Shown here: piece by piece, positions 622 through 64,000 of the stretch
How the letters are laid out: the number at the start of each line of letters is the position of its first letter
Numbering within the stretch: position 1 is the first letter of the stretch
DNA from: Saprospira grandis str. Lewin
GTDB taxonomy: Bacteria > Bacteroidota > Bacteroidia > Chitinophagales > Saprospiraceae
Direction of reading: 5' to 3'
Length of the DNA: 64,000 bases
Assembly: GCF_000250635.1 (NCBI RefSeq)
Contig: NC_016940.1
Location: 1,096,995-1,160,994, forward strand
Translations under genes and position numbers: made by a program
The notes under the pieces: generated by a model
Databases searched by the model: none
The model's input: only the letters and a program-made list of their open reading frames with translations
What the model was told of the DNA's origin: nothing

Positions 622-836
622 TTTTGGGGCGTTACTCCTTTCAGTCGTCGAACTGCAGACTAAAGTCTTTGTTGTCGCTGCGGCCTACAGCCTTGCGGCG
701 CTACGTTTACTCCCTACGGTCGTCGAACTGGCGCCCCTATAGGGGCTGGTTGTCGCAGCTCGCAGGTCTGCTCGGCCCTGCGGCGGCTTTGCCGCCTTGG
801 TCTGGCCTGACGGCCACTGCTGCACATCGCTAGGCC
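622..836 (+). repeat. GC-rich modular intergenic repeat, copy 1; long variant, forward orientation (ends ...ctgctgcacatcgctaggcc)
   Basis: Shares tttttggggc... head, ...gctcgcaggtctgctcggccctgcgg..., ggtctggcc and the terminal cacatcgctaggcc with the other copies. It carries an extra ggtcgtcgaactg module that is also present in the copies at 9695..9913 (reverse) and 56932..57192. Confidence 0.85.
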
Positions 837-871
837 AGCCCGCCCCTATTGGGGTTTTTTCACTCCAAAAA

Positions 872-3858: not shown

Positions 3859-4025
3859 GTTTTAATTGTAGGGACAAGAATGCTAAGCAAAATACCTATA
3901 GATAAACATTAGGTTTTATTCGCTATAAAAACCAAAGGAGCTATCTTAAATTTGAACTGTGACCAAAGTAAATTTGGTTTTCATAGTGATAGTTTTTAGG
4001 GTTTAAGCTCTATGATAAGAGCTAA

Positions 4026-4068
4026 AGCATCAAGCTTGGGGGAGTTTGATGCTTTTTTTATGCCCTTA
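4026..4068 (+). terminator. Possible terminator hairpin downstream of the McrB-like gene
   Basis: agcatcaa...ttgatgct stem with a 13-nt loop, followed by T7. It sits 170 nt after the stop, so it is weak. Confidence 0.3.
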
Positions 4069-4102
4069 GGCCAAGGTTCATTAAAGGCCCGGAGGGCCTT
4101 TG

Positions 4103-4223
4103 GCCTAGCGATGTGCAGCAGTGCGGCGCAGCCGCAGACCAAGGCCGTCAGGCCGCAGGGCCGAGCGAATAGCGAGCTGCGAAACGTAGCGCCGACGAGC
4201 GAAGCGAGGCGGAGGCCCCAAAA
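4103..4223 (-). repeat. GC-rich modular intergenic repeat, copy 2 (reverse orientation)
   Basis: ggcctagcgatgtgcagcag...ggccgagcgaatagcgagctgcgaaacgtagcgccgacgagcgaagcgaggcggaggccccaaaa. The first ~95 bp are identical to the copy at 58762..58898. Confidence 0.85.
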
Positions 4224-4271
4224 CAAAAAAGCCCCTACTTCATCAGTAGAGGCTATATTATTTAGTAGAGT

Positions 4272-6074
4272 TTACTTGAGTTGGAAATCGCTAACGCGAT
4301 AGCCAGGGCGGAGGGGGGAGGTTTCGATATCGGCGAAACGTTTGTGGATAGCGAAGCAGCTACTGGGCACACAGAGGAAGAGGTAGGGTTGTTCTTCATG
4401 GATGATAGCCTGGGCGCGGAAATAGAGCTCCTTACGTTTTTGGGGATCGAGAGTAATGCGGATACTGTCGATAATGCGGTCACATTCTTCATTTCGGAAG
4501 CCGATGCGGTTGCTACCGCCATTTCGGTCTGAGGAAGAGTGCCAAGCCTGCTTAAGCTCGTCGAGATTGGGGCCTTGGGCCCAGGCCGAGCAGATCAGTT
4601 CAAACTCTCGGTTTTGGATATCCTTGACAAAGACGGGAAAATCGGCACTTTTGATTTTGATTTCGATACCGAGGGCTCGGGCTTCACCTTGGAGGAGCAG
4701 TCCAATATTTTTGCGGATATCGTTGCCTTGATTATACTTAAACTCTAGGCTTAGCTTTTCTAGTTTTCCGTTGATGCGTTTATCTAGAACTCCGTCATTA
4801 TCGGAATCGGTCCAGCCGGCTTCTGTCAAGAGTTCTTTAGCTCTTTCGGGGTCATAGCTAAAGGGTTTAATTTGGTCATTATAGTGTTCCTTTTGGGGGT
4901 TAATCGGGCCAACCGTTTCGGTGGCTAGGCCTTCAAAGAGGACATCAATAATTTCTTGGCGGTTAATGATATGGGAGAGCGCTTGGCGGAGCTTTTTATC
5001 CTTTAGCTTAGGGTTGCGCAGATTGATTCCGATATAATAGTAGCCAAAAACGGGGGGAGAAGAGAGTTCAAAAAGATTTTGGAACTCTTGATCTTCTTTT
5101 AGGGCCTTAAACTTGACGGGTTTGATATTGTGTAGGACATCAATTTCCTCATTTCGGGCCACGGTAATAGCGGTACTAGGGTCATTGACCACCTTATGAA
5201 TAATTTTTGTGGGATAGGCCACCAACATAGGGTTTTTGGCCTCATTGGCCCACCAATCTTCTTTGCGTTCTAGGATAATATGTTGGCCATTGCTCCATTC
5301 TACAAAGCGGTAAGGGCCAGATCCGACCACTGTTTCCTTACTAAACTTGGGGCTATTAAAATTTTGGGCAAATCGTTCAAGGTTTGCATTTTTGTTGGCG
5401 GCTTCATAATCCATCTGGTTGAGTTCGGCCAGACTCACTTTTTTCATTAGGCCTTCGGGGTCATAGACATACTCGGGCATAATGTGCATATCGCCAGCAG
5501 ATTCTTCGGCGATAAAATAGCGTTGTTTAGAGAAGATCGTAAACTCTCTTTCGTTATCGGGTGAAATATAGATCGAGTCGATAAACTCATAATAGGGGCG
5601 GCGGCTGCCCGATTCTACCAGAGGATTTTTGATTGCTTTGACGGTAAAGAGATAATCATAGGCCGTAACGGCTTGGCCATTATCCCATTTGGCTTCGGGT
5701 CGGATCTCGAACTTCAGCGACATACCGCCGGCATAGGGGCCCTCTTCTAGTTCTCTGACATCGGGCATTTTGAGGGCGAGTTGGGGCACCAATTTGAGAT
5801 CTTCTGGATGAAACTCCAACAAGCGAGAGAATATGTTGTTCTGAATATAAGTAGCGGCAGCCCCTTGAGAGGTTACAGGATTTAAGCCATCGGGATCATC
5901 TAGTTCCCAGACCGTTACCGAAGGATCCTTCATTTTGTTGCTACTTTGGCTTTCCTTTACTTCCTGAGCGGCTTCTCCGTCTGTTTGGGGAGAGGAAGGC
6001 TGGCAACTGCCAAAACATAAACTTAGTCCGAGCAGGCCTAAGATTGTTTTTTTTCTGATATTCATATTGGTCAT
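4272..6074 (-). CDS. ABC transporter substrate-binding lipoprotein, family 5 (peptide/nickel type)
   Basis: Lipoprotein signal MTNMNIRKKTILGLLGLSLCFGSC. The ~600 aa length and overall pattern fit SBP_bac_5 (oligopeptide-binding) proteins. Confidence 0.7.
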   Translation of the reverse strand: MTNMNIRKKTILGLLGLSLCFGSCQPSSPQTDGEAAQEVKESQSSNKMKDPSVTVWELDDPDGLNPVTSQGAAATYIQNNIFSRLLEFHPEDLKLVPQLALKMPDVRELEEGPYAGGMSLKFEIRPEAKWDNGQAVTAYDYLFTVKAIKNPLVESGSRRPYYEFIDSIYISPDNEREFTIFSKQRYFIAEESAGDMHIMPEYVYDPEGLMKKVSLAELNQMDYEAANKNANLERFAQNFNSPKFSKETVVGSGPYRFVEWSNGQHIILERKEDWWANEAKNPMLVAYPTKIIHKVVNDPSTAITVARNEEIDVLHNIKPVKFKALKEDQEFQNLFELSSPPVFGYYYIGINLRNPKLKDKKLRQALSHIINRQEIIDVLFEGLATETVGPINPQKEHYNDQIKPFSYDPERAKELLTEAGWTDSDNDGVLDKRINGKLEKLSLEFKYNQGNDIRKNIGLLLQGEARALGIEIKIKSADFPVFVKDIQNREFELICSAWAQGPNLDELKQAWHSSSDRNGGSNRIGFRNEECDRIIDSIRITLDPQKRKELYFRAQAIIHEEQPYLFLCVPSSCFAIHKRFADIETSPLRPGYRVSDFQLK

Positions 6075-8706: not shown

Positions 8707-8832
8707 TTTTTTGGGGCCTCCGCCTCGCTTCGCTCGTCGGCGCTACGTTTCAGGGCTCGCAGGTCTGCTCGGCCCTTCAGCGCTTGCAGCGCCTCGGTCT
8801 GGCCTTCGGCCACCCTTGCACATCGCTAGGCC
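8707..8832 (+). repeat. GC-rich modular intergenic repeat, copy 3 (forward; the most canonical copy)
   Basis: tttttggggcctccgcctcgcttcgctcgtcggcgctacgtttcagggctcgcaggtctgctcggcccttcagcgcttgcagcgcctcggtctggccttcggccacccttgcacatcgctaggcc. Confidence 0.85.
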
Positions 8833-8879
8833 AATTGGTCCCGCCTACCCTATCTTTTTAGCTAAAATCTTCTCCGATC

Positions 8880-9647
8880 ATGTCTACTACACCCAATTTA
8901 CTTGCCGTTAGCGAATACTTTTACAGCCTTCAGGGAGAGGGCCAAACGATGGGGGTGCCTGCCATTTTTCTCCGCCTCTCGGGCTGCAATCTCATTTGCG
9001 GGGGCAAAGGGGCCGAAAAAGACGGCCAATTGCATGATGGCGCTAGCTGGATTTGCGATACAATGGAGGTCTGGATGAAGGGCGAAAGTCTTCCCTTTGC
9101 CCAATTGCTGCAGCGCCTAGACGATGAGTTGCAGTTTAGCCAGCGCCTAAGCCAGGGGGTGCATTTGGTCATTACGGGAGGAGAACCGCTCTTACAAGAT
9201 AAGCGCATTGCGGCCTTTTTGGCCTTTTTAGAAGCAGAGCGGCAAGGACTTCGTCCTATTATTGAGGTAGAAACCAATGGTTGTTTTCTGCCCTCTGCTC
9301 CCCTATTAGAAAGAGTCAGTTACTGGAATTGTTCCCCAAAACTCCAAAACTCGGGCATGCCAGCAAAAAAACGCATTGTTCCTAAGGCCCTAAAGGGCTT
9401 GGCCCAAGAAGCTGGAACCATCTTTAAGTTTGTGATTGCCCAAGCCAGCGACTTTGAAGAAATACAAAGCGATTTCTTAGACAAAGGCCTCATCAAAAAG
9501 GAGCAATTGGTCCTTATGCCCGCTGCCGATAGCCTAGCCGCCTTGCTCGAACGCAATAAAATGGTGGCCGAAATTTGTATTCGGGAGCAAATTAGAATGT
9601 GTAGCCGCCTACATGTAGAAATTTGGGACCAACTAACAGGCGTTTAA
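8880..9647 (+). CDS. queE: 7-carboxy-7-deazaguanine synthase (radical SAM, queuosine pathway)
   Basis: N-terminus EYFYSLQGEGQTMGVPAIFLRLSGCNLIC...WICDT matches the QueE start. Cys spacing is unusual (C-x3-C-x18-C). Confidence 0.7.
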   Translation: MSTTPNLLAVSEYFYSLQGEGQTMGVPAIFLRLSGCNLICGGKGAEKDGQLHDGASWICDTMEVWMKGESLPFAQLLQRLDDELQFSQRLSQGVHLVITGGEPLLQDKRIAAFLAFLEAERQGLRPIIEVETNGCFLPSAPLLERVSYWNCSPKLQNSGMPAKKRIVPKALKGLAQEAGTIFKFVIAQASDFEEIQSDFLDKGLIKKEQLVLMPAADSLAALLERNKMVAEICIREQIRMCSRLHVEIWDQLTGV

Positions 9648-9694
9648 AAAAAATTGGCCCAGGGCGAGTCGGCCCTTTGGCCGAAGGCCAAACG

Positions 9695-9913
9695 GCCTAG
9701 CGATGTGCAGCAGTGGCCCGCAGGGCCAGACCGAGCCAGCTTGCTGGCGAAGGGCCGAGCGAACAGCGAGCTGCGAAACGTAGCGCCGACGAGCGAAGCG
9801 AGGCGGAGGCCCAAAAACAGCAGCGAGCTGCGAAACGACAACAAGCCCTTTAGGGCGCAGTTCGACGACCAAAGGGAGTAACCGCCTGCCGAAGACAGGA
9901 GGCCCCAAAAAAA
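9695..9913 (-). repeat. GC-rich modular intergenic repeat, copy 4 (reverse, long variant with the extra module)
   Basis: ggcctagcgatgtgcagcagtggcc...gagcgaagcgaggcggaggcccaaaaacagcagcgagctgcgaaacgacaacaagccctttagggcgcagttcgacgaccaaagggagtaaccgcctgccgaagacaggaggccccaaaaaaa. Confidence 0.85.
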
Positions 9914-12767: not shown

Positions 12768-12800
12768 TAGCTACTGGAATCTATTTCAGTAGCTTTTTTA
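12768..12800 (+). terminator. Rho-independent terminator after the DUF4159 gene
   Basis: tagctactg-gaatctatttc-agtagct stem-loop followed by tttttta. Confidence 0.6.
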
Positions 12801-12948
12801 TTTGGGGCTGCCCCGCCCTGCGGGCGGGTCGGGCTGTCTCAGGGCTCGCAGGTCTGCTCGGCCCTTCAGCGGCTTTGCCGCTTCGGTCTGGCCTTCGGCC
12901 ACCCTTGCCCATCCCTCAGCCAGGGCGCTTCGCGCCCTCTAGGTCCAA
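12800..12948 (+). repeat. GC-rich modular intergenic repeat, copy 5 (forward, head variant B: gggctgccccgccctgcgggcgggtcgggctgt...)
   Basis: tttggggctgccccgccctgcgggcgggtcgggctgtctcagggctcgcaggtctgctcggcccttcagcggctttgccgcttcggtctggccttcggccacccttgcccatccctcagccagggcgcttcgcgccct. Confidence 0.85.
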
Positions 12949-16608: not shown

Positions 16609-16771
16609 TTTTTGGGGCCTGCGGGCCCCTTTTGCCTTGCTGCGCTGCGGCAAGGGCCCGCCGGGCTGTTGCGGGGCTCGCCGGGCTGTTGCGGGGCTCG
16701 CAGCGCTGCTCGGCCCTTCAGCGCTGCGCGCTTCGGTCTGGCCTGCGGCCACCCCTACACATCCCTAGGCC
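16609..16771 (+). repeat. GC-rich modular intergenic repeat, copy 6 (forward, with an internal 20-bp tandem duplication gccgggctgttgcggggctc x2)
   Basis: tttttggggcctgcgggcccc...gccgggctgttgcggggctcgccgggctgttgcggggctcgcagcgctgctcggcccttcagcgctgcgcgcttcggtctggcctgcggccacccctacacatccctaggcc. Confidence 0.85.
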
Positions 16772-18069: not shown

Positions 18070-18200
18070 ATGAGCGGCCCAGCGCTGCGCAGCGGTGGCC
18101 GCAGGCCAGACCCAGCGGGCGAAGCCCGCGCAGGGCCGAGCAGACCTGCGAGCCGCGGAGCATAGCGGCGGCCAGCGAAGCTGGCCGCGGGCCCCAAAAC
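18070..18200 (-). repeat. GC-rich modular intergenic repeat, copy 7 (reverse)
   Basis: cggcccagcgctgcgcagcggtggccgcaggccagaccc...gggccgagcagacctgcgagccgcggagcatagcggcggccagcgaagctggccgcgggccccaaaa. Confidence 0.85.
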
Positions 18201-20328: not shown

Positions 20329-20730
20329 GCCTATAATAGCGCAGATGAGGAAATTATTCTGCTGGATAAGGTAGCCAAGCAAAAACTATTAACGGATGAG
20401 GAAATTAAATCCTTAAAAGCCAAGAAACTAATCGAGGGAAGAAAGCCCAACTTTCATATTTCCTCAGAAGTAGCTAAAGCATCGGGAGATAAAGCAAGGT
20501 ATATAAAGCAAAGAGGGATTGACGATAAGTTTTATGAACAGTTAATTATTCAATATTTGAATAAATTTCAAGTAGCTAGTAGCGCTGACCTTAAAAAACT
20601 ACTACTCGATAAATTACCTGAAATTTTAGCTCCCAAACAGAAAGAAAATAAAATCAGAAATATGTTGCAAAAGATGAAGCGCAACTCACTAATTAAGCTA
20701 AATGAAAACCGAGAATGGCAACTCGTTTAA
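20329..20730 (+). pseudogene. Remnant (C-terminal ~130 codons) of a RecG-like 'ATP-binding protein / putative transcriptional regulator' gene, with the N-terminal part deleted
   Basis: The frame is open from the stop at 20326 but has no start codon. The translation ...LIEGRKPNFHISSEVAKASGDKARYIKQRGIDDKFYEQLIIQYLNKFQVASSADLKKLLLDKLPEILAPKQKENKIRNMLQKMKRNSLIKLNENREWQLV* matches the conserved C-terminal HTH tail of that family as recalled. Confidence 0.55.
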
Positions 20731-20817
20731 TTTAAACGGGATTTAAACGGGATTTAAACGGGATTTAAACGGGATTTAAACGGGATTTAAACGGGATTTA
20801 AACGGGATTTAAACGGG
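20731..20817. repeat. Tandem repeat, 11-bp unit (atttaaacggg) x ~8
   Basis: tttaaacggg followed by (atttaaacggg)x7, directly visible. It begins at the stop codon of the truncated gene. Confidence 0.9.
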
Positions 20818-20934
20818 AAATTAATGCAAAGTACTGGAAATCAAAAACATAAGTCTCGTTTAATTTGGTTTAAAAAAATTTAATTTAATCGAATTAGCTA
20901 TTTTTAAATGATAGAAATTTAAGCCTCAGGAATC

Positions 20935-23868: not shown

Positions 23869-25002
23869 CTACTCTAGCTTTTCTAAGCCCCCAAATTCTG
23901 CCTGCCCCTGGGCCAACATGGCTTTGCGAGCCGATAATTCTACTTTCTCCGATTTTTGCAAACAAGAGAAGTCCGCCGCCAAAATGGCTTGGAGCTCCGC
24001 CAAAACTTCTTCCCGACTCAACCAGTAGTGCTCCGTCAAAAAGATGTCGTCTAATAGCTTTTGCTTAAAGGGATCTAAGGCTTGATCTAAGTTTAAATCG
24101 CTCTGATAAAGCGCATCCAGCCGCTCAAAAAGGGCCAAATGCTGCCCCCGACCCAATAGGCTGTATTCCCGATTTTCTTCCAACAAAGCTATGCTCCAAC
24201 TCCCCAGAGAATAACCCAAACTGTCTAAAGGATAGGCCGCATAAAAAAGCTCCACCAATTGGTCATCTAAGCTGTCTGCCGTCTGCTCGGCCAACTTCCC
24301 CCAAAATCTGTAATCCCGATACAGCTGATATTCGGTTTTGGGGGCTGGCAAATAGACCAAATAACCCGGCAGTACATGCTGCAACCAAAAGAAATTGGCC
24401 AAACTATCTGCCGAACTTAAGGCCAAGGCCTCATTCACCCGCTCCTCCAAGGCCAATTCTAGGTTTTCGCCCTTTTTATACAACATCCGAAAAGCAGGCA
24501 AACTCTGAATCTCTGCTGCTTCTCGCTGATATTGCTTGACCTCCGCAGCCAACTCGTCGCCAAAAAAGAAGTATAAACGCCGATCTAACCAAAGCCGCTG
24601 CAAATCCTCCGAGGGCAGGCTGTCAAAGCTCAAACTCCCCCCAAATAACCAGCCCTTATAGCCATCTGCCGCCTCTACTTCTAGCCAGGGCTCCCTATGG
24701 TCCACCCCCTCCAAACGGATCAAACTTTCGGCCTTGCTCATCCGCCCCAAATACCGAAAACTACTGCCTTTGTGGTAGCTCCGCAAACTTTTTGCCCCCC
24801 AATCTGGCGCCGCTTTCAACTCCCCTTCTCGACTGCTCAGGCTCAGGCTGGCTCCTTGCCCATCTGTCGATATGTATAGGCTGCTGTCTGCGGTTTTGGG
24901 CGCTTTTTCTGGCCCTTCTAGCAGCGGTTCCTGGCCTTGCTCTTCGGTACAAGAAAACAATAACAAACAGACAATCAAGGATATAGCGGAATATATTTTC
25001 AT
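23869..25002 (-). CDS. Hypothetical lipoprotein
   Basis: MKIYSAISLIVCLLLFSCTEEQ lipobox-like signal. Otherwise no recognised family. Confidence 0.5.
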   Translation of the reverse strand: MKIYSAISLIVCLLLFSCTEEQGQEPLLEGPEKAPKTADSSLYISTDGQGASLSLSSREGELKAAPDWGAKSLRSYHKGSSFRYLGRMSKAESLIRLEGVDHREPWLEVEAADGYKGWLFGGSLSFDSLPSEDLQRLWLDRRLYFFFGDELAAEVKQYQREAAEIQSLPAFRMLYKKGENLELALEERVNEALALSSADSLANFFWLQHVLPGYLVYLPAPKTEYQLYRDYRFWGKLAEQTADSLDDQLVELFYAAYPLDSLGYSLGSWSIALLEENREYSLLGRGQHLALFERLDALYQSDLNLDQALDPFKQKLLDDIFLTEHYWLSREEVLAELQAILAADFSCLQKSEKVELSARKAMLAQGQAEFGGLEKLE

Positions 25003-25012
25003 CTTTTTTTTT

Positions 25013-25172
25013 ATTTTGGGGCTGCCCCGCCCTGCGGGCGGGTCGGGCTGTGTCAGGGCTCGCAGGTCTGCTCGGCCCTTCGCAAAAAAGCTGCGCTTTT
25101 TTGCTCGGTCTGGCCCTGCGGGCCACCCTTATCCATCCCTCAGCCGAGGGCCAGCCGCCAAGCGCTTTAGCC
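25013..25172 (+). repeat. GC-rich modular intergenic repeat, copy 8 (forward, head variant B)
   Basis: ttttggggctgccccgccctgcgggcgggtcgggctgtgtcagggctcgcaggtctgctcggcccttcgcaaaaaagctgcgcttttttgctcggtctggccctgcgggccacccttatccatccctcagcc... Confidence 0.85.
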
Positions 25173-25234
25173 TAAAATTTTTATCAAAGAAGGGCCAAAC
25201 AATTAATTAGATCATTGCGAAGCAATACCATTTT

Positions 25235-25359
25235 GGCCTAGCGATGTGCAGCAGTGGCCGTCAGGCCAGACCGAGCCGCTGAAAGCGGCGAAGGGCCGAG
25301 CGAACAGCGAGCTGCGAAACGTAGCGCCGCAAGGCGAAGCCGCAGCGGAGGCCCCAAAA
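25235..25359 (-). repeat. GC-rich modular intergenic repeat, copy 9 (reverse); forms an inverted pair with copy 8
   Basis: ggcctagcgatgtgcagcagtggccgtcaggccagaccgagccgctgaaagcggcgaagggccgagcgaacagcgagctgcgaaacgtagcgccgcaaggcgaagccgcagcggaggccccaaaa. Confidence 0.85.
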
Positions 25360-25363
25360 CATC

Positions 25364-32439: not shown

Positions 32440-32595
32440 TTTTTGGGGCTGCCCCTGCGGCCTACGGCCTTGGGTCGGGCTGTTTCGCAGCTCGCTGATC
32501 GCTCGGCCCTGCGCTTTTTCACTACGTTCAAAAGCTGGGTCTGGCCTTCGGCCACTGCTGTCCATCCCTCAGCCTGCGGCGGCTTTGCCGCCTGC
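32440..32595 (+). repeat. GC-rich modular intergenic repeat, copy 10 (forward, variant B-like)
   Basis: ttttggggctgcccctgcggcctacggccttgggtcgggctgtttcgcagctcgctgatcgctcggccctgcgctttttcactacgttcaaaagctgggtctggccttcggccactgctgtccatccctcagcctgcggcggctttgccgcctgc. Confidence 0.85.
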
Positions 32596-32700
32596 TAACG
32601 GTGGCTGCAACATAAACCCTACAGCAAAAATGGTCCTGCGCTGCAAGGCGGTATAAATTGAGGGCCGAAGAAAATGGCCAAAAGAGAAAAAGACCGTTGA

Positions 32701-32827
32701 GCGGCTTAGCGCTGCGGAGCGGGTGGCCGCAGGCCAGACCAAGGCGGCTTGCCGCCGCAGGGCCGAGCAGACTTGCGAGCCCCGCAGCATAGCGCCCCGC
32801 CGCCTGCGGCGGCGGGGAAGCCCCAAA
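32701..32827 (-). repeat. GC-rich modular intergenic repeat, copy 11 (reverse); forms an inverted pair with copy 10
   Basis: gcggcttagcgctgcggagcgggtggccgcaggccagaccaaggcggcttgccgccgcagggccgagcagacttgcgagccccgcagcatagcgccccgccgcctgcggcggcggggaagccccaaa. Confidence 0.85.
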
Positions 32828-34192
32828 TTAGTCCCTATGAAAAGGAAGCAACCAACTGGGACTACTAAAAAGCGCTGCTTTTTCTTGGGCCAAATTGACC
32901 TGAGGATCTACCAAGCGCTGGCTAGGGCGGCCATTGAGGCTGACCTGAGCGTCTAGATAAACCTCTGGGTTTTGATAGCCTTCTTCTGTTTGGTAATAAT
33001 TGGCCAAATAATGGGCAAACTGCAAAAGCATATCAGGTTGATAGGCCATCATCAGCTCCTGTTTTTCATTGAGATGGTCCAGATTATTGACCCAGCTCAT
33101 TTTGCCCGTTTGGCCATCGACTACCTTAAACTGAGCATAGCCCCTTTTCTCGACCAGCATGACCATCCAAGAAAAGCGGAAGCCCTGTTCCTGCCAAAGG
33201 ACATTGCCCGCATAGAGATGATGTCGCAGCGGAAAAAGCGCCTGAAAAAGCAGAAAAGACAGCAAAAAATAGCGTTGAAAAGGGGGAAGAACGAGCTCTA
33301 GTTTTAATTTAGACAAAGTCAAATTAAAAATTTGAGCAAAGGTAGCAATTATTTTTTCATGAAAATGGCTAGAGAAAAAAATTGTGGTGCAGGCCATCAT
33401 CAGGTAGGGAAAAATGCCGATATAGAAGAGGGCGGCGGTGGCTAGGTGGAAGCAAATGACAAAAAAGTAGGCATATTTTCGGCTTTTGGACCAAAGGAGA
33501 AAAAAGCCAATACTGAGATCGAAGGCGGCGCCAAAACAGGCAAAAATGGGGGGCAGCCAGCTCTTGCAGAGGAGAGGGCCAAAGATTGGAAAATCGGATA
33601 GTTGGCCCAGCCAGATGCGCAGAGGTTGGGCTAAAACGAGCCAATCGCTTTGCAACTTGGCCAAGCCGGCAAAAAAATAGACCAGCACAAAAAGCAGTCG
33701 GGGCGTCCATATATATAGAGCGGGAACCTTGACCAAAGTCACCGAGATCGGATAATCTAGGGAAAAAGCGCGATGAGCGGGCAGGATCCAAAGCAGCAGG
33801 GCTAGCAAAGCGACCAGGTAGTAATGATTGAGATAATGCGTCAGGTCCAAAAGCTCTACATAAGTAAAGCAAGCAAAAAAAATCCCGGCAGAAAATTTAT
33901 ATTTATAGCCTAGGGCGATACCGAGGCCAGCGGCAGCCATCAAAAAAAAGCAGGCATAAAGGGCTGTTGCGGGCAATTCGGGCAGCCAATGCGTACCCCA
34001 AAGGCGGAAGGCAAACTGGGGTTGGATATAGAACTTATCGACCCAGCCGAGCAGCAGCATTCGCAGAGAGAGCCAGCAAGCGATCAGGCCAAAAATGATT
34101 CTGAGGCTAATGAGGGGGGCGATACTTTTGGGTTGGTCTAAAGCGAGCATAAGGATGAATTTTATGGGCGCAAAGGTAGACAATAGGCGCAA
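32828..34192 (-). CDS. Polytopic membrane protein, HTTM-domain-like (vitamin-K-dependent gamma-carboxylase-related)
   Basis: Multiple predicted TM helices over ~280 aa (…YIWTPRLLFVLVYFFAGLAKLQSDW…) followed by a soluble C-terminal domain. The assignment is from recalled family features only. Confidence 0.45.
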   Translation of the reverse strand: MRLLSTFAPIKFILMLALDQPKSIAPLISLRIIFGLIACWLSLRMLLLGWVDKFYIQPQFAFRLWGTHWLPELPATALYACFFLMAAAGLGIALGYKYKFSAGIFFACFTYVELLDLTHYLNHYYLVALLALLLWILPAHRAFSLDYPISVTLVKVPALYIWTPRLLFVLVYFFAGLAKLQSDWLVLAQPLRIWLGQLSDFPIFGPLLCKSWLPPIFACFGAAFDLSIGFFLLWSKSRKYAYFFVICFHLATAALFYIGIFPYLMMACTTIFFSSHFHEKIIATFAQIFNLTLSKLKLELVLPPFQRYFLLSFLLFQALFPLRHHLYAGNVLWQEQGFRFSWMVMLVEKRGYAQFKVVDGQTGKMSWVNNLDHLNEKQELMMAYQPDMLLQFAHYLANYYQTEEGYQNPEVYLDAQVSLNGRPSQRLVDPQVNLAQEKAALFSSPSWLLPFHRD

Positions 34193-36855: not shown

Positions 36856-37011
36856 CCCTCCCCCAGGCCCTATTGGCCCAGCGCTGCGGAGGGGTGGCCG
36901 AAGGCCAGACCAAAGCCGCCAAAGGCGGCTGCAGGGCCGAGCAGACCTGCGAGCCCCGCAGCATAGCGGCGGCCGAGCGAGGCGAAGCCGAGCCGGCCGC
37001 GGGCCCCAAAA
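36856..37011 (-). repeat. GC-rich modular intergenic repeat, copy 12 (reverse)
   Basis: cccagcgctgcggaggggtggccgaaggccagaccaaagccgccaaaggcggctgcagggccgagcagacctgcgagccccgcagcatagcggcggccgagcgaggcgaagccgagccggccgcgggccccaaaa. Confidence 0.85.
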
Positions 37012-37014
37012 TAA

Positions 37015-39210: not shown

Positions 39211-39370
39211 TTTTGGGGCCTCAGCTGCGCTGCGCTTGCTGCGCTACGTTTCGGGGCTCGCAGGCTTGCTCGGCCCTTCAGTGCTGCGCACTTCGGTCTG
39301 GCCTGACGGCCACCCCTACACATCGCTAGGCCATCTGGCCTGACGGCCAAGGCGGCTGCGCCGCCTATCC
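39211..39370 (+). repeat. GC-rich modular intergenic repeat, copy 13 (forward, with a 3' extension)
   Basis: ttttggggcctcagctgcgctgcgcttgctgcgctacgtttcggggctcgcaggcttgctcggcccttcagtgctgcgcacttcggtctggcctgacggccacccctacacatcgctaggcc + atctggcctgacggccaaggcggctgcgccgcc. Confidence 0.85.
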
Positions 39371-41117: not shown

Positions 41118-41267
41118 AGCAGGGCGCGAAGCGCCCGCAGGCTGAGCTGCCGAAGCAGGGCCGCCGAAGGCGGCAGACCAAAGCGCTGAAAGCGCTGCAG
41201 GGCCGAGCAAACCTGCGAGCTGCGAAGTGGAGCGACCCGACCAAAGGAAGGGGCAGCCCCAAAAAAA
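41118..41267 (-). repeat. GC-rich modular intergenic repeat, copy 14 (reverse, variant B)
   Basis: cagggcgcgaagcgcccgcaggctgagctgccgaagcagggccgccgaaggcggcagaccaaagcgctgaaagcgctgcagggccgagcaaacctgcgagctgcgaagtggagcgacccgaccaaaggaaggggcagccccaaaaaaa. Confidence 0.85.
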
Positions 41268-42681: not shown

Positions 42682-42832
42682 TTTTTTTGGGGCTGCCCCA
42701 GCCTTTGGCTGGGTCGGGCTGTATCGCAGCTCGCTATTCGCTCGGCCCTGCGCTTTTTCGCTAGGCTCAAAAGCTAGGTCTGGCCTTCGGCCACTGCTGT
42801 CCATCCCTCAGCCTGCGGGCGCTTCGCGCCCT
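42682..42832 (+). repeat. GC-rich modular intergenic repeat, copy 15 (forward, variant B)
   Basis: ttttttttggggctgccccagcctttggctgggtcgggctgtatcgcagctcgctattcgctcggccctgcgctttttcgctaggctcaaaagctaggtctggccttcggccactgctgtccatccctcagcctgcgggcgcttcgcgccctg. Confidence 0.85.
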
Positions 42833-44221: not shown

Positions 44222-44402
44222 GATAGGCGGCGAAGCCGCCTGCGAGCGAAGCGAGCCATGGCCCAGCGCTGCGCAGCCGTGGCCCGAAGGGCCAGACCCA
44301 GTTTTTTGAGCGCAGCGAAAAAAACGCAGGGCCGAGCAGACCTGCGAGCGGCGCAGCATAGCGGCGGCCGCCCCAAATTGAAGGGCGGCCGCGGGCCCCA
44401 AA
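44222..44402 (-). repeat. GC-rich modular intergenic repeat, copy 16 (reverse, long)
   Basis: gataggcggcgaagccgcctgcgagcgaagcgagccatggcccagcgctgcgcagccgtggcccgaagggccagacccag...gggccgagcagacctgcgagcggcgcagcatagcggcggccgccccaaattgaagggcggccgcgggccccaaagc. Confidence 0.85.
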
Positions 44403-44435
44403 GCAAAAAAAAGAGGACCGTAGTCCTCCCTTTTC

Positions 44436-48648: not shown

Positions 48649-48671
48649 TTTATAACTTTATTTTGATCTAG

Positions 48672-48806
48672 TTTTGGGGCTGCCCCTTCCTATGGTCGGG
48701 TCGGGCTGTGTCGTGGCTCGCAGGTCTGCTCGGCCCTGCAGTTTTTTCGCTACGCTCAAAAACTTGGGTCTGCGGCTGCGCCGCACCACTTTCCATCCCT
48801 CAGCCA
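48672..48806 (+). repeat. GC-rich modular intergenic repeat, copy 17 (forward, variant B); a detached fragment lies at ~48961..48995
   Basis: ttttggggctgccccttcctatggtcgggtcgggctgtgtcgtggctcgcaggtctgctcggccctgcagttttttcgctacgctcaaaaacttgggtctgcggctgcgccgcaccactttccatccctcagcc. Further on, cctgcgggcgcttcgcgccctgc appears again. Confidence 0.8.
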
Positions 48807-49757: not shown

Positions 49758-49783
49758 TCGAGGCCTGAAGGGCCTCTTTTTTG
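49758..49783 (+). terminator. Rho-independent terminator after recO
   Basis: gaggcc-tgaa-ggcctc stem followed by T6. Confidence 0.6.
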
Positions 49784-49900
49784 GCCTAGCGATGCGGCGG
49801 GGTGGCCGTCAGGCCAGACCAAGGAGCCGCAGGCGACGAAGGGCCGAGCAAGCCTGCGAGCCCCAAAGCGTAGCGCCCGCCGAAGGCGGGAGGCCCCAAA
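49783..49900 (-). repeat. GC-rich modular intergenic repeat, copy 18 (reverse)
   Basis: ggcctagcgatgcggcggggtggccgtcaggccagaccaaggagccgcaggcgacgaagggccgagcaagcctgcgagccccaaagcgtagcgcccgccgaaggcgggaggccccaaaa. Confidence 0.85.
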
Positions 49901-49904
49901 ACAG

Positions 49905-51633: not shown

Positions 51634-54600
51634 TTAGAGCGTTTGCTTCACTTCTTTGATTTCGTAAACTTCGATTTCGTCGCCTTCACGGATACCGTCG
51701 AAATTGCGGATGGTTAGACCACATTCGAAGCCATTTTTAACTTCGGGGACACTATCCTTAAAGCGTTTGAGTGAGCTAAGTTCGCCATGTTGTCCTTCCT
51801 TTTTGGGGAAGATCACGATACCGTCGCGGATCACTCGGATATAGCTATTGCGGGTTACTTTACCAGATTGCACCATACAACCGGCAACTTTACCCACCTT
51901 AGAAATGCTAAATACGGTTTGGATAGCTACAGAACCAATAGTTTCTTCTACTTGCTTGGGTTCTAGCATACCTTCTAGGGCAGACTTTACTTCCTCGATA
52001 GCATCGTAGATAATAGAATAGGTCTTAATTTCCACTCCTTCTTGTTCAGATAGGCGGCGAGCAGATGGGTTGGGGCGCACTTGGAAGCCGATAATAATGG
52101 CATCAGAAGCGGCGGCAAGGTTTACATCAGACTCTGTAATTTGACCTACAGCCTTATAGATAATATTGGTTTGAATTTGCTCGGTAGAAAGTTTGAGCAA
52201 AGAATCAGAAAGTGCTTCTACAGAACCGTCCATATCTCCTTTCACGATCAGGTTCAACTCTTGGAAGTTACCCACTTTGAGTCGGCGAGTAATATCGTCT
52301 AGAGTAATACGGCGGGTAGCACGAATCTGTTGCTGGCGGATAATTTGGCCGCGTTTGTTGGCCAATTCTTTCACCTTACGTTCAGACTCTAGCACCTGAA
52401 GCTTCTCCCCTGCTTGAGGGGCGCCATCGAGGCCAAGAACGAGAACGGGAGTAGAAGGTCCGGCCTTTTTCACTCGTTTACCTCTTTCATCGAACATGGC
52501 TTTCACACGGCCATGATATTGGCCCGCGATGATAGGATCTCCGATAGCGAGTGTACCAGTTTGCACCAATACTTTGGCTACATATCCGCGGCCTTTTTCT
52601 AGAGAGGCTTCGAGGATAGCACCAATAGCTCGGCGGCTAGGATTAGCTTTAAGCTCTAGCATTTCAGACTCCAACAAGATTTTCTCTAGGAGTAAATCTA
52701 CATTAAGGCCTTTTTTGGCTGAGATATCTTGGCTTTGGTAAGTACCGCCCCATTCTTCAACGAGGAGGTTCATAGAGGCCAATTCTTGTTTAATTTTCTC
52801 GGGTTGTGCGCCTTCCTTATCAATCTTGTTAATAGCGAAGATGATAGGTACTTCGGCAGCTTGGGCGTGACTAATTGCCTCTTTAGTTTGGGGCATGATG
52901 TTATCATCTGCGGCGATAATAATTACAGCCACATCGGTTACTTTTGCACCACGGGCACGCATAGCGGTAAAGGCTTCGTGACCAGGAGTATCAAGGAAAG
53001 TAATGCTTCCCATATCCTTCACCTTAACTTCATAGGCACCAATATGCTGAGTAATACCTCCGGCCTCACCTTCGGCAACATTAGCCTTACGGATGCGGTC
53101 CAAGAGAGAGGTTTTACCGTGGTCTACGTGACCCATTACGGTAACGATTGGAGAGCGGGGTTTGAGATCTGCGGGATCATCTTCTTCCTCCTCCTCTTCG
53201 ATATCGACTTGATCTTCGGCAGAGATAAACTCTACTTCATAGTCATATTCTGTAGCGATCAGTTCGATAATTTCTGCATCTAGACGTTGGTTAATAGAAA
53301 CGAACTGTCCGATTTGCATACACATCATAATGATATCGGCGGGAGTGGCATTGAGCAGGCCGGCCAATTCAGATACAGAGATAAACTCTGTTACCTGTAG
53401 TACCTGGGGCTCTTCCATCTCTTCTTCCATACGTTGGCGCATGGCTTCCTTCTTCTCATCACGAGAGGCACGGGTAGAACGGCGTCCTCCTTTTTTGCCT
53501 CCACCATGCAGGCGTTGCATGGTTTGTTTTAGTTTATCGTCTACCTCCTTATCAGAGATTTCGCGGCGTTTACCTTTCTTCTTCCGCTTTTTGTTACTAT
53601 TAGACGATTGGCGATCATTAGATCCTCCACGATTGTCGTTAGATCTTCCACGATTATCGTTTTGGGCTTGATTGGTTGAGATTTTGGTGCGCTTACGTTT
53701 TGTTCTATCGTTATTGCCATCCTTTTTCTCCTCCTTCTTCTCTCCGCCTTTTTTGGCCTCTTGTTTTTCCTGAGGCTTTTTATCGTCGGTACCGCCAATT
53801 TTCTTGCGGTTACGTTTCTTTTTGCGTTTGCGGCGTGGGTCTTCAATATTGATCTTACCTAAGATCTTGAGCCCTTTAAGTTGGGGAGCCTCCATTTTGA
53901 TATCGACTCCTTCCTTTTTCTTTTCAGTAGTTGCTTCTGGCTGTTCTTCGGTTTTCTGTTCCGTTTTCTCGGCCACAACTTGTTTTTCTTCTACCACTTT
54001 TGGTGATTTGGTTTCTTCCTTTTTAGGCGTCTCCTGCTTAGGCTCTTCCTTAGCTTTGGGGGTTTCTTCCTTTTTGGGAGTTTCTTTCACCTCCTGTTTG
54101 GCTTGTTCCTCCTGCTTAGGTTTAGGCTCTTCTTTTTTGGGCGCCTCTTCTTTCTTGGCAGTAGTTTTCTTGCCTCCTTTACGGCGGCCAGAGCGAGACT
54201 GCTCATCTAAGTTGATTTTGCCCAAAATTTTTGGCCCTTTAGGCATATTAGAAACCACTTCATCATCTTTGGTTTCCTCCTTTTTCTCAGAAAGCTCGCT
54301 TTGCTTTACAACGGGAGTCTCTTCTTTGGGTGTAGTAATTTCAACTTTCTTAACCGGCTTTGCTTCTTGCTTAGCCTTGGCCAATTGGCGCTCTTTTTCC
54401 TTCTTTCTTTTCTCCTCCTCCTTCTTTTCCTTCTCTAAGCGGCTGCCAATAGTAATCTTGTCCGCCTCTTCCTTAATGGCGGCAGATTTGTTGAAACGGG
54501 CCAACAACTTATCGTACATTTCGTCTGAAACCTTGGCTGTGGGGCGGTTGACCACCTCATATCCATTATCGTTCAGATACTCAACGATAGTGTTTGTTCC

Positions 54601-54642
54601 AATATTTAGCTCGGCAGCTACTTTTACTAACCTTTTTGACAT
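51634..54642 (-). CDS. infB: Translation initiation factor IF-2
   Basis: G-domain [31 protein letters not shown]. 1002 aa with a long Lys/Glu-rich N-terminal region. Confidence 0.95.
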
Positions 54643-54932
54643 TCCGTGTATTTAGCTAATTGCGTAAAAATCGTGATTTTAAAAAATCGGTACAAATATA
54701 GTCAATATATTTGAGAGCATTCCCATAACATTAGGAAAAATGCCTTTTGGCCCCTTCTTTATTCATAGAAAAGCCTAGGGCCCTTGCTTTTCTTATCTTG
54801 AATTTCGTCTTCTGATACCTGCTTTTTCTCTAGCGAGAAGGGGCGATATGGACTAGCTTTCAGCTAAAAAAGGCCTAAGTATAAGATGTTTTTTACTACG
54901 CCCCTACTTAGGCCCCTAAACGTTAGCAGTAA

Positions 54933-56249
54933 TTATTCTGCGCTATCTTCTTCACTACTCTCCTCTTCGGCTTCTTCTTCAACAGGATCGGGCAAATCTT
55001 TACCTCCATCGTCAAATTCTGCTTTGAGGACCACAATGATTTCCTTAATGGTCTCCTCTTCCAAGTCTGTCCGACGCAAGAGCTCATCCAAACTTAGATT
55101 GAGTACATTTCTGGCGGTATCACAACCAATATTCTTCAATTCATCAATGACCCAATCTTCAATCTCATCTCTAAACTCGTCGAGCTCTACATCAAAGTCG
55201 GCATCTGTATCAAAGGCGCCTTCTCTAAAGACGTCAATGTTGTAATCTACTAAACGGCTAGCCAATTTGATATTGACGCCCTTCTTACCAATCGCCTTAG
55301 AAATTTCAGCCGCTTCCAAAAAGACAGAAGCTTTGCGATTATCCAAGTCCAATTCTACCGAACTGATCCGCGCTGGCGTCAATGCCCGCTGAATCAATAA
55401 GGCTTCATTGCTAGTATAATTGATAATGTCTATGTTTTCGTTCCGCAATTCCCGAACAATTCCGTGAATTCTAGAACCTTTCATCCCTACACAGGCCCCA
55501 ACAGGGTCAATTCGCTCGTCATAAGACTCTACCGCTACCTTGGCTCTATCGCCAGGCGCACGAACAATCTTACGCACCGTAATCAATCCATCCTCAATCT
55601 CAGGTACCTCCTGCTCGAGCAAACGCTCCAAAAAGCTGCTGGCCGTACGAGAAAGAATGACCATGGGGTTGTTGTTTTTGTTCTCTACTCGGTCCACTAC
55701 CGCCCGAACCATATCTCCCTTACGGAAATAATCGCCGCGAATAGTTTCCGATTTAGGCAACATCAACTCCGCTCCGGTAGCCTCATCCACAATCACAAAT
55801 TCCCGCTTCAAGGTCTGTGCTACTTCTCCAAAAATAAGGTCCCCAATCCGGTCGGCATACATCTGATATACCTTGTCCTTCTCTAGTTCCAAAATTCTTG
55901 AAATTAAGGTCTGACGAGCCGCCATGATCGCACGACGACCAAAATCAGCTACCCCCACTTTTTCATAACACTCTTCGCCTACCTCATAGTCCTCCTCAAT
56001 CTTTACCGCATCGCTAATCGCAATATGATAACGATCATCCTCTACCTCGCCATCGGGAACGATCTCGCGCTTGCGCCAAATCTCTAAATCCCCCTCAATG
56101 GTGCTCACAATGATGTCAAAGTTATCATCGGCCCCATATTTTTTGCGAATAAGGGTTCTGAATACATCCTCGAGCACCCGCACCATGGTTGGGCGATCAA
56201 TGCTCTTCATATTTTTAAACTCCGAAAAGGAATCAATCAAATTGATCAT
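54933..56249 (-). CDS. nusA: Transcription termination/antitermination factor NusA
   Basis: S1 and KH region blocks (VGACVGMKGSRIHGIVREL, RKIVRAPGDRAKVAV) and an acidic C-terminal tail. Immediately downstream of rimP. Confidence 0.9.
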   Translation of the reverse strand: MINLIDSFSEFKNMKSIDRPTMVRVLEDVFRTLIRKKYGADDNFDIIVSTIEGDLEIWRKREIVPDGEVEDDRYHIAISDAVKIEEDYEVGEECYEKVGVADFGRRAIMAARQTLISRILELEKDKVYQMYADRIGDLIFGEVAQTLKREFVIVDEATGAELMLPKSETIRGDYFRKGDMVRAVVDRVENKNNNPMVILSRTASSFLERLLEQEVPEIEDGLITVRKIVRAPGDRAKVAVESYDERIDPVGACVGMKGSRIHGIVRELRNENIDIINYTSNEALLIQRALTPARISSVELDLDNRKASVFLEAAEISKAIGKKGVNIKLASRLVDYNIDVFREGAFDTDADFDVELDEFRDEIEDWVIDELKNIGCDTARNVLNLSLDELLRRTDLEEETIKEIIVVLKAEFDDGGKDLPDPVEEEAEEESSEEDSAE

Positions 56250-56265
56250 ACCTTATGTATAATTT

Positions 56266-56754: not shown

Positions 56755-56931
56755 CTGACTTCTTTATAATAAAAAGAGGGAACGTTTTCACGGTTCCCTC
56801 GCTCAATGCGTTTTGCTGCCACAAATATAAGCATTTATCTTTAGCTTTTTGGACTTTCTCCAGATTTGTTAGCCCAGCCCCCATTTTTTCCAGCTCCTCT
56901 CCCCTCCTTTCTACTGCCTCAATTTCTGCTG

Positions 56932-57192
56932 TTTTGGGGCCTCCCGCCTGCGGCGGGCGGTTACTCCCTTTGGTCGTCGAACTGCGAACTAAAGTTCTTG
57001 TTGTCGTTTATTCTCTTTGGTCATCGAACTGGCGCCCCTATAGGGGCTTGTTGTCGCAGCTCGCTGCTATTTTGGGGCCTCCGCCTCCCTTCGGTCGTCG
57101 GCGCTACGTTCCGCAGCTCGCTATTCGCTCGGCCCTTCGCCAGCTTCGCTGGCTCGGTCTGGCCTACGGCCACTGCTGCACATCGCTAGGCC
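56932..57192 (+). repeat. GC-rich modular intergenic repeat, copy 19 (forward; composite of two heads plus the extra module)
   Basis: ttttggggcctcccgcctgcggcgggcggttactccctttggtcgtcgaactgcgaactaaagttcttgttgtcg...ggtcatcgaactggcgcccctataggggcttgttgtcgcagctcgctgctattttggggcctccgcctcccttcggtcgtcggcgctacgttccgcagctcgctattcgctcggccc...ctgctgcacatcgctaggcc. Confidence 0.85.
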
Positions 57193-57225
57193 TGTGGCCC
57201 TTCGGGCCTGTAGGACGAAAAAGTT

Positions 57226-57675: not shown

Positions 57676-57819
57676 CTTTATTTTATTTAGAGTGAATTAG
57701 TATTATTAGCCCTCTAACTGCTCATCTTCTGATAGATGATTTTTTGCTTGGGCTAGCTGTCCACTCAATACCCGCTTTCATTGAAAAAAGTTCTATTGTC
57801 TTCAAAAGAAAGAAGGACT

Positions 57820-58389: not shown

Positions 58390-58448
58390 GTTGATTGTTT
58401 TTATTGGTCCAAGATAGGGTTTAAAATTTTGTGTATGCGCCTTTCTTG

Positions 58449-58760: not shown

Positions 58761-58761
58761 G

Positions 58762-58898
58762 CAGGCGGCGAAGCCGCCGCAGGCCTAGCGATGTGCAGCA
58801 GTGCGGCGCAGCCGCAGACCAAGGCCGTCAGGCCGCAGGGCCGAGCGAATAGCGAGCTGCGAAACGTAGCGCCCGCCGAAGGCGGGAGGCCCCAAAAA
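58762..58898 (-). repeat. GC-rich modular intergenic repeat, copy 20 (reverse; near-identical to copy 2)
   Basis: ggcctagcgatgtgcagcagtgcggcgcagccgcagaccaaggccgtcaggccgcagggccgagcgaatagcgagctgcgaaacgtagcgcccgccgaaggcgggaggccccaaaaaaa. Confidence 0.85.
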
Positions 58899-58957
58899 AA
58901 CAAAAAAGGAGCAGTAAAAAATTACTACTCCTTTTGTATGCTATTGTGCCCAAGCCA

Positions 58958-59779: not shown

Positions 59780-59873
59780 CAGGATTGATTTTTTGGTATT
59801 GCTCTTAGCGAGCGGCTTGAAATTGACCATTTTTTGTCAGTTCACAAAATATTAGTTGGCCTTTTTCTCTGCG

Positions 59874-63841: not shown

Positions 63842-63941
63842 AATGACGCTTCTGTATGCTTTGGCCTCAAGATAAGGCCCGACTTATAATAAACAAAAGC
63901 CCTAAAAGGTTTTTAAGTGATGTTTAAGCCTATTCTGCTGT

Positions 63942-64000
63942 TTTGGGGCCTCCGCTGCGGCTTCGCCTTGCGGCGCTACGTTACAGGGCTCGCTCTTCGC
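63942..64000 (+). repeat. GC-rich modular intergenic repeat, copy 21 (forward, cut by the window end)
   Basis: ttttggggcctccgctgcggcttcgccttgcggcgctacgttacagggctcgctcttcgc. Confidence 0.8.

Follow-up and report, generated by a model that had tools for sequence, protein, structure and literature searches.

The stretch of Saprospira grandis str. Lewin analysed here (contig NC_016940.1, positions 1,096,995 to 1,160,994 of the forward strand; 64,000 nucleotides, hereafter the window) contains, 55 kb apart, two copies of a GC-rich, non-coding, modular repeat of ~125 nt that share an identical core. Two proteins encoded in the window are identical to S. grandis str. Lewin proteins AFC23811.1 and AFC23866.1. 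Copy 1 lies at site 1 (4102..4223, + strand) and comprises the core (4102-4193), a last hairpin, H3 (4194-4212), and a closing AGGCCCC followed by AAAA (4213-4223). Copy 2 lies at site 2 (58782..58900, + strand) and comprises the core (58782-58873), H3 (58874-58886), and AGGCCCC followed by an A-run (58887-58900). The copies score 109.9 and 97.8 bits, respectively, with a covariance model (CM) of the family, and each is preceded by an upstream accessory hairpin, H0, on the + strand: GGCCC-GGA-GGGCC at 4086..4098 and GGCGGC-GAA-GCCGCC at 58764..58778. Each focal copy starts exactly past a T-tract, which belongs to the intrinsic terminator of a neighbouring gene on the minus strand. In particular, the terminator of the SBP_bac_5 gene (4272-6074) is located at 4230..4254 (- strand), with a T-tract at 4220-4229 that adjoins the 3′ end of copy 1, and the terminator of the SDR gene (58958-59779) is located at 58904..58935 (- strand), with a T-tract at 58894-58903 that adjoins the 3′ end of copy 2; on the minus strand, the terminators read from 4254 to 4230 followed by TTTTTGTTTT and from 58935 to 58904 followed by TTGTTTTTTT. 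The copy at 4102 is flanked by two facing terminators.

The two cores match at 92 of 92 nt on the + strand (4102-4193 and 58782-58873), and the 92-nt string has only these two occurrences in the window, compared with 0 expected by chance (100 dinucleotide-preserving shuffles). The bases bordering the tract are unlike (t/a at 4101/58781, g/c at 4194/58874), and the exact shared tract is therefore 92 nt. The original prediction, made from the window alone, of a ~95-bp identity between distant copies was right about the identity and slightly long in its extent; it had also placed the divergence in the last module only, where H3 indeed differs (GACGAGCGAAGCGAGGCGG in copy 1, CGCCGAAGGCGGG in copy 2), and had missed that H0 differs as well (GGCCCGGAGGGCC in copy 1, GGCGGCGAAGCCGCC in copy 2). 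The two copies agree again 3′ of their unlike H3 hairpins (AGGCCCCAAAA). Across 273 full-length copies from the window and a sample of S. grandis DSM 2844 (37,128 pairs), the longest exact string shared by a pair has a median length of 17 nt and a 99th percentile of 44 nt, and 10 pairs (0.03%) share at least 90 nt. Most copies thus differ by many substitutions, as had been proposed, and identity on this scale is atypical of the family rather than the mark of a generally young one. The 92-nt identity is exceptional in the family, though the pair is not unique: Lewin-type cores with 3-4 mismatches are present elsewhere in DSM 2844 (L086 2187-2278 and L032 3016-3107), and a third site in S. grandis WHT has a Lewin-type core with 4 mismatches and one gap.

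Aligned copies define a scaffold, GGCCTAGCGATGTGCAGCAGTG–H1–CAGACCRAG–H2–GMAGGGCCGAGC-(AGACCT or GAAYA)-GCGAGC-NNNN-GAAAC-GTAGCGCC–H3–NRGCCCCAAAA, of which the folding strand is 5′-GGCC...GGCCCCAAAA-3′. RNAalifold predicts a closing helix, P1, between 5′ GGCYN and 3′ NRGCC; two long-range helices, P2 and P3, that pair the 5′ segment with the sequence 3′ of GCGAGC; and a junction with H1, a short helix closing H2, and a mini-hairpin, with H3 as the last hairpin. Compensatory changes are present in 18 of the 31 predicted pairs, and G-C, A-U, C-G, and U-A alternatives occur at three positions of P3. Among 148 distinct copies, standard pairs account for 95.2% of cells, compared with 72.6% in shuffles and 29–47% with the partners slid, and double-sided changes number 1,053, compared with 340 in shuffles.

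We compared both sites, located by their neighbouring proteins, in S. grandis WHT, S. grandis DSM 2844, S. grandis-like metagenome contigs, and Saprospira sp. CCB-QB6, a separate species. Identity to the window is 96–98% for WHT, ~93.5% for DSM 2844, and, at site 1, ~78% for CCB-QB6. A copy is present at both sites in WHT, DSM 2844, the metagenome contigs, and CCB-QB6, with no empty site among them at either focal site, and direct repeats in the flanks, indicative of target-site duplication, are no commoner than with shuffled flank partners. The same holds for presence or absence at other copies: 7 of 7 comparable window copies are at the same sites in WHT and DSM 2844, at least 4 are so in CCB-QB6 too, and, among the seven, only an add-on partial unit (9819-9913) is polymorphic for presence.

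The sites are stable, whereas their contents vary. At site 1, the flanks of WHT and DSM 2844 are 94–98% identical to those of Lewin and the element is 65–74% identical. Specifically, WHT, DSM 2844, and the metagenome contig carry the modules CAGGGG / GGCCGAAGGCC / GCGCGCAGCGC / GCAGACCTGC / GCCCCG, where Lewin carries CAGCAG / GCGGCGCAGCCGC / GGCCGTCAGGCC / GCGAATAGC / GCTGCG, and all of them have the H0 of copy 1 in common with Lewin. The site-1 copy of CCB-QB6 has a Lewin-type core (2 mismatches in 92 nt, 97.8% identity) and nearly the same H3, between coding flanks that are about 70–85% identical, so that the site-1 core and H3 of Lewin look inherited. At site 2, WHT, DSM 2844, and the metagenome contigs have in common a non-Lewin core, GATGCGGCGGGGTG...GCCCCAAAGCG, which argues that the Lewin state there is derived. 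The modules on either side of the core are shared differently: the H3 of Lewin (CGCCGAAGGCGGG) is also present in the WHT and metagenome orthologs, and its H0 is also present in the metagenome orthologs (L134, L131); the upstream hairpin of WHT is unlike that of Lewin, DSM 2844 is unlike Lewin at both H0 and H3, and WHT, DSM 2844, and the metagenome strains differ from one another in H1, H2, or H3. CCB-QB6 is the same as Lewin over the whole site-2 element, including H0 and further upstream. Around this site, in window positions 54,000-59,800, Lewin and CCB-QB6 are 92–99% identical, against about 78% elsewhere, and Lewin and WHT are 96–100% identical; the genes in this interval, compared with CCB-QB6 locus L128, encode IF-2, NusA, RimP, an acetyltransferase, and the SDR protein. 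The high Lewin/CCB-QB6 identity implies that the region was exchanged between lineages and suggests that 54000-59800 may be a recent inter-species recombination tract.

Replacement in place is also seen at other copies. At the copy at 8708 (8708..8833, - strand), Lewin differs from WHT and DSM 2844 in both strands of P3 and in H1, H2, and H3 within identical flanks; the CCB-QB6 ortholog is remodelled in these elements as well, and the DSM 2844 ortholog has an extra 42-nt insertion of a second module, Y. The copy at 9694 (9694..9913, + strand) has two allelic forms, whose distribution departs from the relationships among strains seen at 4102; Lewin and DSM 2844 have the add-on unit (~95 nt), which WHT and the metagenome contig lack. 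The copy at 12799 (12799..12922, - strand) is 98.4% conserved relative to WHT and DSM 2844. Remodelling at 8708 and 9694 and conservation at 12799 point to episodic block replacement rather than to a uniformly high mutation rate.

The exchanged blocks respect base pairing. In the 8708 orthologs, the two sides of P3 shift together (AAGGG/CCCT in Lewin, AGGGG/CCCC in WHT, and AGCAG/CTGC in CCB-QB6), and in distant homologs the sequences of P1, P2, and P3 differ yet remain complementary (e.g. GCGTG...CACGC and GGTGCC...GGCACC). Among 246 copies, which contain 56 H1, 132 H2, and 123 H3 sequence variants, the adjusted mutual information is 0.77 for P1a-P1b and 0.79 for P3a-P3b, paired segments 65–115 nt apart, compared with 0.02–0.13 for physically adjacent modules (H1-H2, 0.06; H2-M, 0.02; M-P3b, 0.04). 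Modules thus reassort almost freely, while base-paired partners stay matched. The co-change of P3 in orthologs, the distant homologs, and the module linkage each support the fold independently.

We infer that the two stretches are members of an abundant structured repeat whose 92-nt identity is most likely the footprint of ectopic gene conversion in the Lewin lineage. Site 2 looks as a conversion tract should: the recipient keeps its own modules, the interior appears to come from an ectopic donor, and the orthologs would represent the pre-conversion state. Copies persist at fixed intergenic sites for long periods while their contents are overwritten piecemeal from other copies, and the mechanism would be either non-reciprocal homologous recombination or replication template switching primed in conserved linkers; the linkers GTG/CAGACC, AGGGCCGAGC, GCGAGC, and GGCCCC would be the expected breakpoints. 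The most parsimonious history, and the most likely one on the sequence patterns, would have three steps. The site-1 core (4102) would have overwritten the site-2 core (58782) in the Lewin lineage, in a tract no longer than 92 nt with H0 and H3 as its bounds, with the recipient at 58782 keeping its own upstream hairpin and last hairpin; the site-2 region would subsequently have passed into the CCB-QB6 lineage; and, in the lineages that gave rise to WHT, DSM 2844, and the metagenome strains, the site-1 copy would itself have been replaced. Of the two origins suggested in the original prediction, gene conversion or concerted evolution is supported by the foreign core between native modules at site 2 and by the block replacement of other orthologous copies. 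The pair itself is ordinary for a repeat family evolving in concert.

[quoted passage not shown] It is not supported, because both sites are occupied in the four other lineages, including another species, no empty site or target-site duplication above control is seen, and the flanking modules of the two copies differ. Moreover, the identical tract stops at internal module boundaries, with the recipient retaining hairpins found in conspecific strains; the terminal pairing covaries, unlike a conserved transposase-binding inverted repeat; and searches of 2.1 Mb of Saprospira DNA yielded neither a parent insertion sequence nor a Y1 transposase. We therefore regard transposition as very improbable. 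An assembly or polishing artefact, in which collapsed repeat reads gave both loci one consensus, is more improbable still: repeats of this family do break short-read assemblies (Logan and metagenome contig ends, N-runs in DSM 2844), but the independent CCB-QB6 assembly (CP116808) has the same 92-mer at site 2 and 90 of 92 nt at site 1, and the modules that flank the core differ between the two Lewin copies, each set matching its own orthologs.

Two further alternatives are unlikely, to a similar degree. Both copies could be old members of one subfamily kept constant by purifying selection, with no recent event, as the 97.8% identity of the site-1 element between Lewin and CCB-QB6 amid far more diverged coding flanks, and the same core with 3-4 mismatches at DSM 2844 L086 and L032, would suggest; against such constancy, three other S. 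grandis lineages have a different core in common at site 2, orthologous copies change wholesale between strains with 94–99% identical flanks, and the family tolerates 56, 132, and 123 sequences for H1, H2, and H3, respectively. Alternatively, the site-2 allele of Lewin could have been imported whole, by homologous recombination, from a Saprospira lineage already bearing the core, with the within-genome identity secondary. The raised Lewin/CCB-QB6 identity over 54,000-59,800, compared with about 78% at site 1, and the identity of the two site-2 elements through H0 and further upstream are as such an import would leave them. However, Lewin is also 96–100% identical to WHT in this interval, so that receipt of S. 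grandis DNA by CCB-QB6 is the simpler reading, and an import leaves the exact match to the site-1 core of the same genome unaccounted for and merely shifts the conversion to a donor lineage.

Several points weigh against gene conversion as set out above, or against parts of it. The conversion is deduced from patterns in the sequences, with no enzyme or recombination intermediate seen. Its direction is uncertain, since the site-2 region, at 92–99% identity in CCB-QB6, has been exchanged between lineages, and in an alternative history two independent conversions, one in each lineage, would have run from 58782 to 4102. That the site-1 copies of Lewin and CCB-QB6 are nearly identical across ~20% flank divergence implies strong constraint or homogenisation, and fits awkwardly with the fast turnover at other copies. 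The covariation counts overstate the number of independent events, because the copies are paralogous and the alignment was fitted to the model. The assignment of the folded form to single-stranded DNA, discussed below, is drawn from loop statistics and background biophysics. Finally, copies in co-directional intergenic regions show no orientation bias relative to transcription (54 vs 47, crude open-reading-frame (ORF) calls), and on these counts a role at the mRNA level is unproven.

The fold is strand-asymmetric, with z-scores of −1.8 to −3.5 on the scaffold strand and −0.05 to −0.97 on the complement. C-G-closed triloops, always on the scaffold strand, predominate among 1,849 hairpins (GAA, 236; GCA, 191; AAA, 118; GTA, 24; GNA total, 451), and the middle base of the triloop varies among orthologs (e.g. 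GAA vs GCA). Hairpin stems are almost purely Watson–Crick, with H1 99.8% paired and containing 3 G-U. The helices of the model contain 170 G-U vs 8 A-C appositions (23 vs 8 after subtraction of two fixed positions) and ~135 G-A vs ~13 C-U appositions. C(GNA)G triloops are exceptionally stable in DNA, as known from work on the d(GCGAAGC) mini-hairpin by Hirao, Yoshizawa, and colleagues, whereas natural RNAs prefer tetraloops and tolerate G-U. The triloop-dominated, almost purely Watson–Crick hairpins with C(GNA)G loops therefore incline us slightly towards single-stranded DNA, rather than RNA, as the folded form in play.

The copies are closely tied to the ends of genes. By crude ORF calls, 194 of 211 copies are intergenic, 34% of these between convergent genes, and the A-rich 3′ end lies near a gene end (median distance 45 nt, compared with 156 nt at the 5′ end). 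The four bases 3′ of CCCC are A in 86–98% of copies, and the sequence stays A-rich for ~15 nt. Taken with the lack of orientation bias, this indicates that the elements go with gene ends and A-tracts rather than with the direction in which transcription runs. The element itself is not an intrinsic terminator: the folding strand ends in CCCCAAAA, on the complement the T-run comes before the structure, and the terminators are separate, adjoining hairpins. Among pairs of copies no more than 400 nt apart in the DSM 2844 sample, 36 of 39 are inverted, with the 5′ ends facing and the 3′ ends pointing to the genes on either side; single copies make up 79%. The two arms of close pairs are of unrelated subtypes (e.g. 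window 25012-25360 and 32440-32830), and, since inverted pairs combine subtypes at random, we rejected the possibility that they are the left and right ends of a larger element.

Upstream of copy 1, an intergenic stretch (3870-4062, + strand) is 85–90% identical between S. grandis and CCB-QB6 in 200-nt bins, and 93% over the last 212 nt, compared with about 70–80% for the genes that flank it. It ends in a strong terminator-like hairpin and T-run (4024-4055) and looks like a conserved small RNA gene or leader; its only Rfam match is a sub-threshold one to GibS (28.8 bits).

The window contains 21 copies by iterated nhmmer, 10 on the + strand and 11 on the - strand, and a CM built from 17 of them recovers 21 of 21. 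Besides the copies already located, those found with nhmmer and the CM lie on the + strand at 18076..18199, 36874..37013, 41140..41265 (with a variant 5′ segment), 44259..44403, and 49782..49902 (whose H3, CGCCGAAGGCGGG, is the same as that of copy 2), and on the - strand at 727..837 (a variant with Y-module extensions towards ~640), 16650..16771 (with a variant 3′ part), 39211..39333, 42684..42813, 48671..48806, and 63940..64000 (cut by the window end). Two pairs have facing 5′ ends, with left arms at 25012..25145 and 32440..32574 (- strand) and right arms at 25234..25360 and 32703..32830 (+ strand), respectively. The copy at 56940..57192 (- strand) consists of the repeat (57068-57192) and an add-on unit with two Y modules (56940-57067), and the partial unit at 9819-9913 likewise has a Y module. 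Module Y has the form GACAACAAG-short stem-CAGTTCGACGACCAAAGGGAGTAAC; it is seen at 9819-9913, 56940-57067, and 640-760 and in the L123/L125 orthologs, is carried by some copies once or twice, inserted in the 5′ or 3′ strand of P2, and varies in presence among strains at orthologous sites. An AT-rich intergenic stretch at 20708-20839 holds a tandem array of ~10 copies of an 11-nt unit, ATTTAAACGGG.

The gene order of CCB-QB6 fits a ~15-kb inversion with breakpoints in the intergenic regions that hold the inverted copies 9694(+) and 25012(-): on its L121 (4006-7172), the 255-aa gene of window 8880-9647 is joined to the 377-aa gene of window 23869-25002, with one repeat copy between them. Repeat copies also coincide with gaps and ends in assemblies. 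Logan contigs L132, L135, and L136 stop just short of the repeat copy, 50–80 nt past the SDR gene, and runs of N mark repeat copies in the DSM 2844 draft (L016, L062, L063); the family systematically breaks assemblies.

In 920 kb of DSM 2844, a sample biased to repeat-containing chunks, a hidden Markov model finds 322 copies. The density in unbiased stretches (the window and loci L121-L133) is ~1 copy per 3 kb, from which we estimate, by extrapolation, of the order of 1,000 copies, or roughly 4% of the genome. In a scan with one genome per species for the most conserved 22-mer, the matches listed were almost all from S. grandis DSM 2844, and in a metagenome scan one sample of a related Saprospira predominated, with little gain in diversity. 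Copies are also present on the 56.6-kb scaffold_1 of DSM 2844 (L041, L093), which may, by its size, match the ~53–55-kb plasmid reported for other S. grandis strains. Distant homologs in metagenome-assembled genomes of Lewinellaceae (L075 7214-7323, L119 1486-1595) and Saprospiraceae (L110, L081) carry the GCAGGGCCGAGCAGACCTGCGAGC core, which was the search pattern, together with the same architecture, so that the family reaches beyond the genus. Rfam 15 has no family for the repeat: only a tRNA was found at the gathering threshold, and with E up to 10 no family recurred at the copies. No description of the repeat family was found in full-text literature searches for Saprospira repeats, REP, MITE, and related terms, and a survey of GTAG/CGTC repeats does not mention Saprospira or relatives. 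The complex covarying fold, the cassette-like hairpins, and the very high density appear undescribed.

Four other identities for the repeat were considered and set aside. A phage origin was rejected because pattern matches in viral contigs are due to chance and the CM finds none there. A single-strand initiation signal or lagging-strand-specific element is not supported: + and - copies alternate (10 vs 11 in the window). A retroposon-like origin was considered because of the A-rich tail and apparent 5′ truncations; the "truncated" matches are variant 5′ segments, Y-module insertions, or assembly gaps. A hammerhead-like core, CGAAAC...GUAG, is confined to one subtype and unconserved.

The closest known kind is the REP sequence and the bacterial interspersed mosaic element (BIME) of enterobacteria and pseudomonads, including the system of REPINs and their REP-associated tyrosine transposases (RAYTs), and the repeat is best described as structured and interspersed, of REP/BIME type. 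The two kinds have in common a high copy number, GC richness, an extragenic location, and the formation of hairpins; they show enrichment at gene 3′ ends and between convergent genes; and both are mosaics of modules whose sites are stable across strains while their contents vary. As REP sequences carry a tag, so about half of the Saprospira copies have GTAG or ATAG ahead of the last hairpin: TAGCG is present 3′ of the internal loop in 127 of 246 copies, with the preceding base completing GTAG or ATAG, and other subtypes have ACAGCC. The tag is, however, not general in the Saprospira repeat, which belongs to the phylum Bacteroidota and whose unit is not a 20–40-nt palindrome but a multi-helix fold of 125 nt that includes long-range helices and a junction, with hairpins that are hypervariable cassettes on a conserved scaffold. 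The inverted pairs resemble REPINs, but their arms are of unrelated subtypes. In tblastn searches of 2.1 Mb of Saprospira DNA, part of the genome, RAYT, IS200, and IS608 probes found nothing credible, a weak negative; of two weak matches, one is a peptidoglycan-binding protein and the other a large ORF of unrelated kind. REP sequences were long ago proposed to evolve by gene conversion (Higgins et al. 1988, cited in PMC3733652).

Likeness to other kinds is more partial. The Correia elements of Neisseria, the ERIC/IRU elements of enterobacteria, and the BOX elements of pneumococci are MITEs or modular repeats of 100–150 nt that are intergenic and fold stably, and BOX elements are built of modules, among them boxB units in varying number. 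The Saprospira repeat resembles them in size, intergenic location, and stable folding, and its optional Y modules resemble the variability of boxB; it differs in having no target-site duplication, a terminal pairing of 5 bp that covaries (GGCCT/AGGCC, GGCTG/CAGCC, GGCCC/GGGCC), no related autonomous element found, and a much higher density (1 per 3 kb). We rejected assignment to MITEs for the absence of target-site duplications, empty sites, and a parent element and for the covarying termini. No split element ends flanking a transposase were seen, and the products encoded at a candidate split-end locus (L016) are a pentapeptide-repeat protein and a thymidine kinase. Like structured RNAs such as those in Rfam, the repeat has a conserved secondary structure in which several helices show compensatory changes; it differs from them in having no Rfam 15 match and no orientation bias relative to flanking transcription, and in triloops and near-absent G-U in hairpin stems that are atypical for RNA, and no conserved promoter is present upstream of repeat copies. 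The predominant hairpin, with a G-C stem and a C-G closing a GAA, GCA, or GTA loop, resembles the d(GCGAAGC) mini-hairpin; that hairpin belongs to biophysical model sequences, not to a genomic repeat family, and the likeness is a lead to a single-stranded DNA form only.

The evidence to date demonstrates no host function. Our guess is that the repeat could act where transcription units end, as a structural element of REP/BIME-like kind, for example a structural barrier; we would likewise guess that the fold owes its persistence to selection on a single-stranded form, probably of DNA, or to a copying mechanism that depends on that form. A more far-reaching, and doubtful, possibility is a dedicated system, in which a conserved junction scaffold would carry three hypervariable GNA-capped cassettes, and these cassettes would be actively exchanged by a putative enzyme acting on single-stranded DNA. 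Such a system would, if it exists at all, mark transcription-unit ends at ~1,000 fixed loci, the 3′ A-end always against the gene, and would extend, with the same architecture and different helix sequences, to the homologs in Lewinellaceae and other Saprospiraceae; it would then represent a new class of structured element in genomes, one with a copy-and-correct mechanism of its own. The strand-asymmetric GNA-triloop hairpins suggest a single-stranded DNA form and, if this is true, point to an unknown enzyme or process.

The family matters for studies of assembly, annotation, and genome stability in Saprospiraceae, because it makes up, by extrapolation, ~4% of the genome, breaks assemblies, and has at least one rearrangement breakpoint in its intergenic regions. 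In the orthologous loci, the concerted evolution of a bacterial repeat family can be viewed directly, with sites that are stable across species and contents that are overwritten module by module, the base-paired segments being kept matched. Evolution of REP-like elements by gene conversion, an old idea and for the most part an untested one, thereby becomes testable in a tractable organism.

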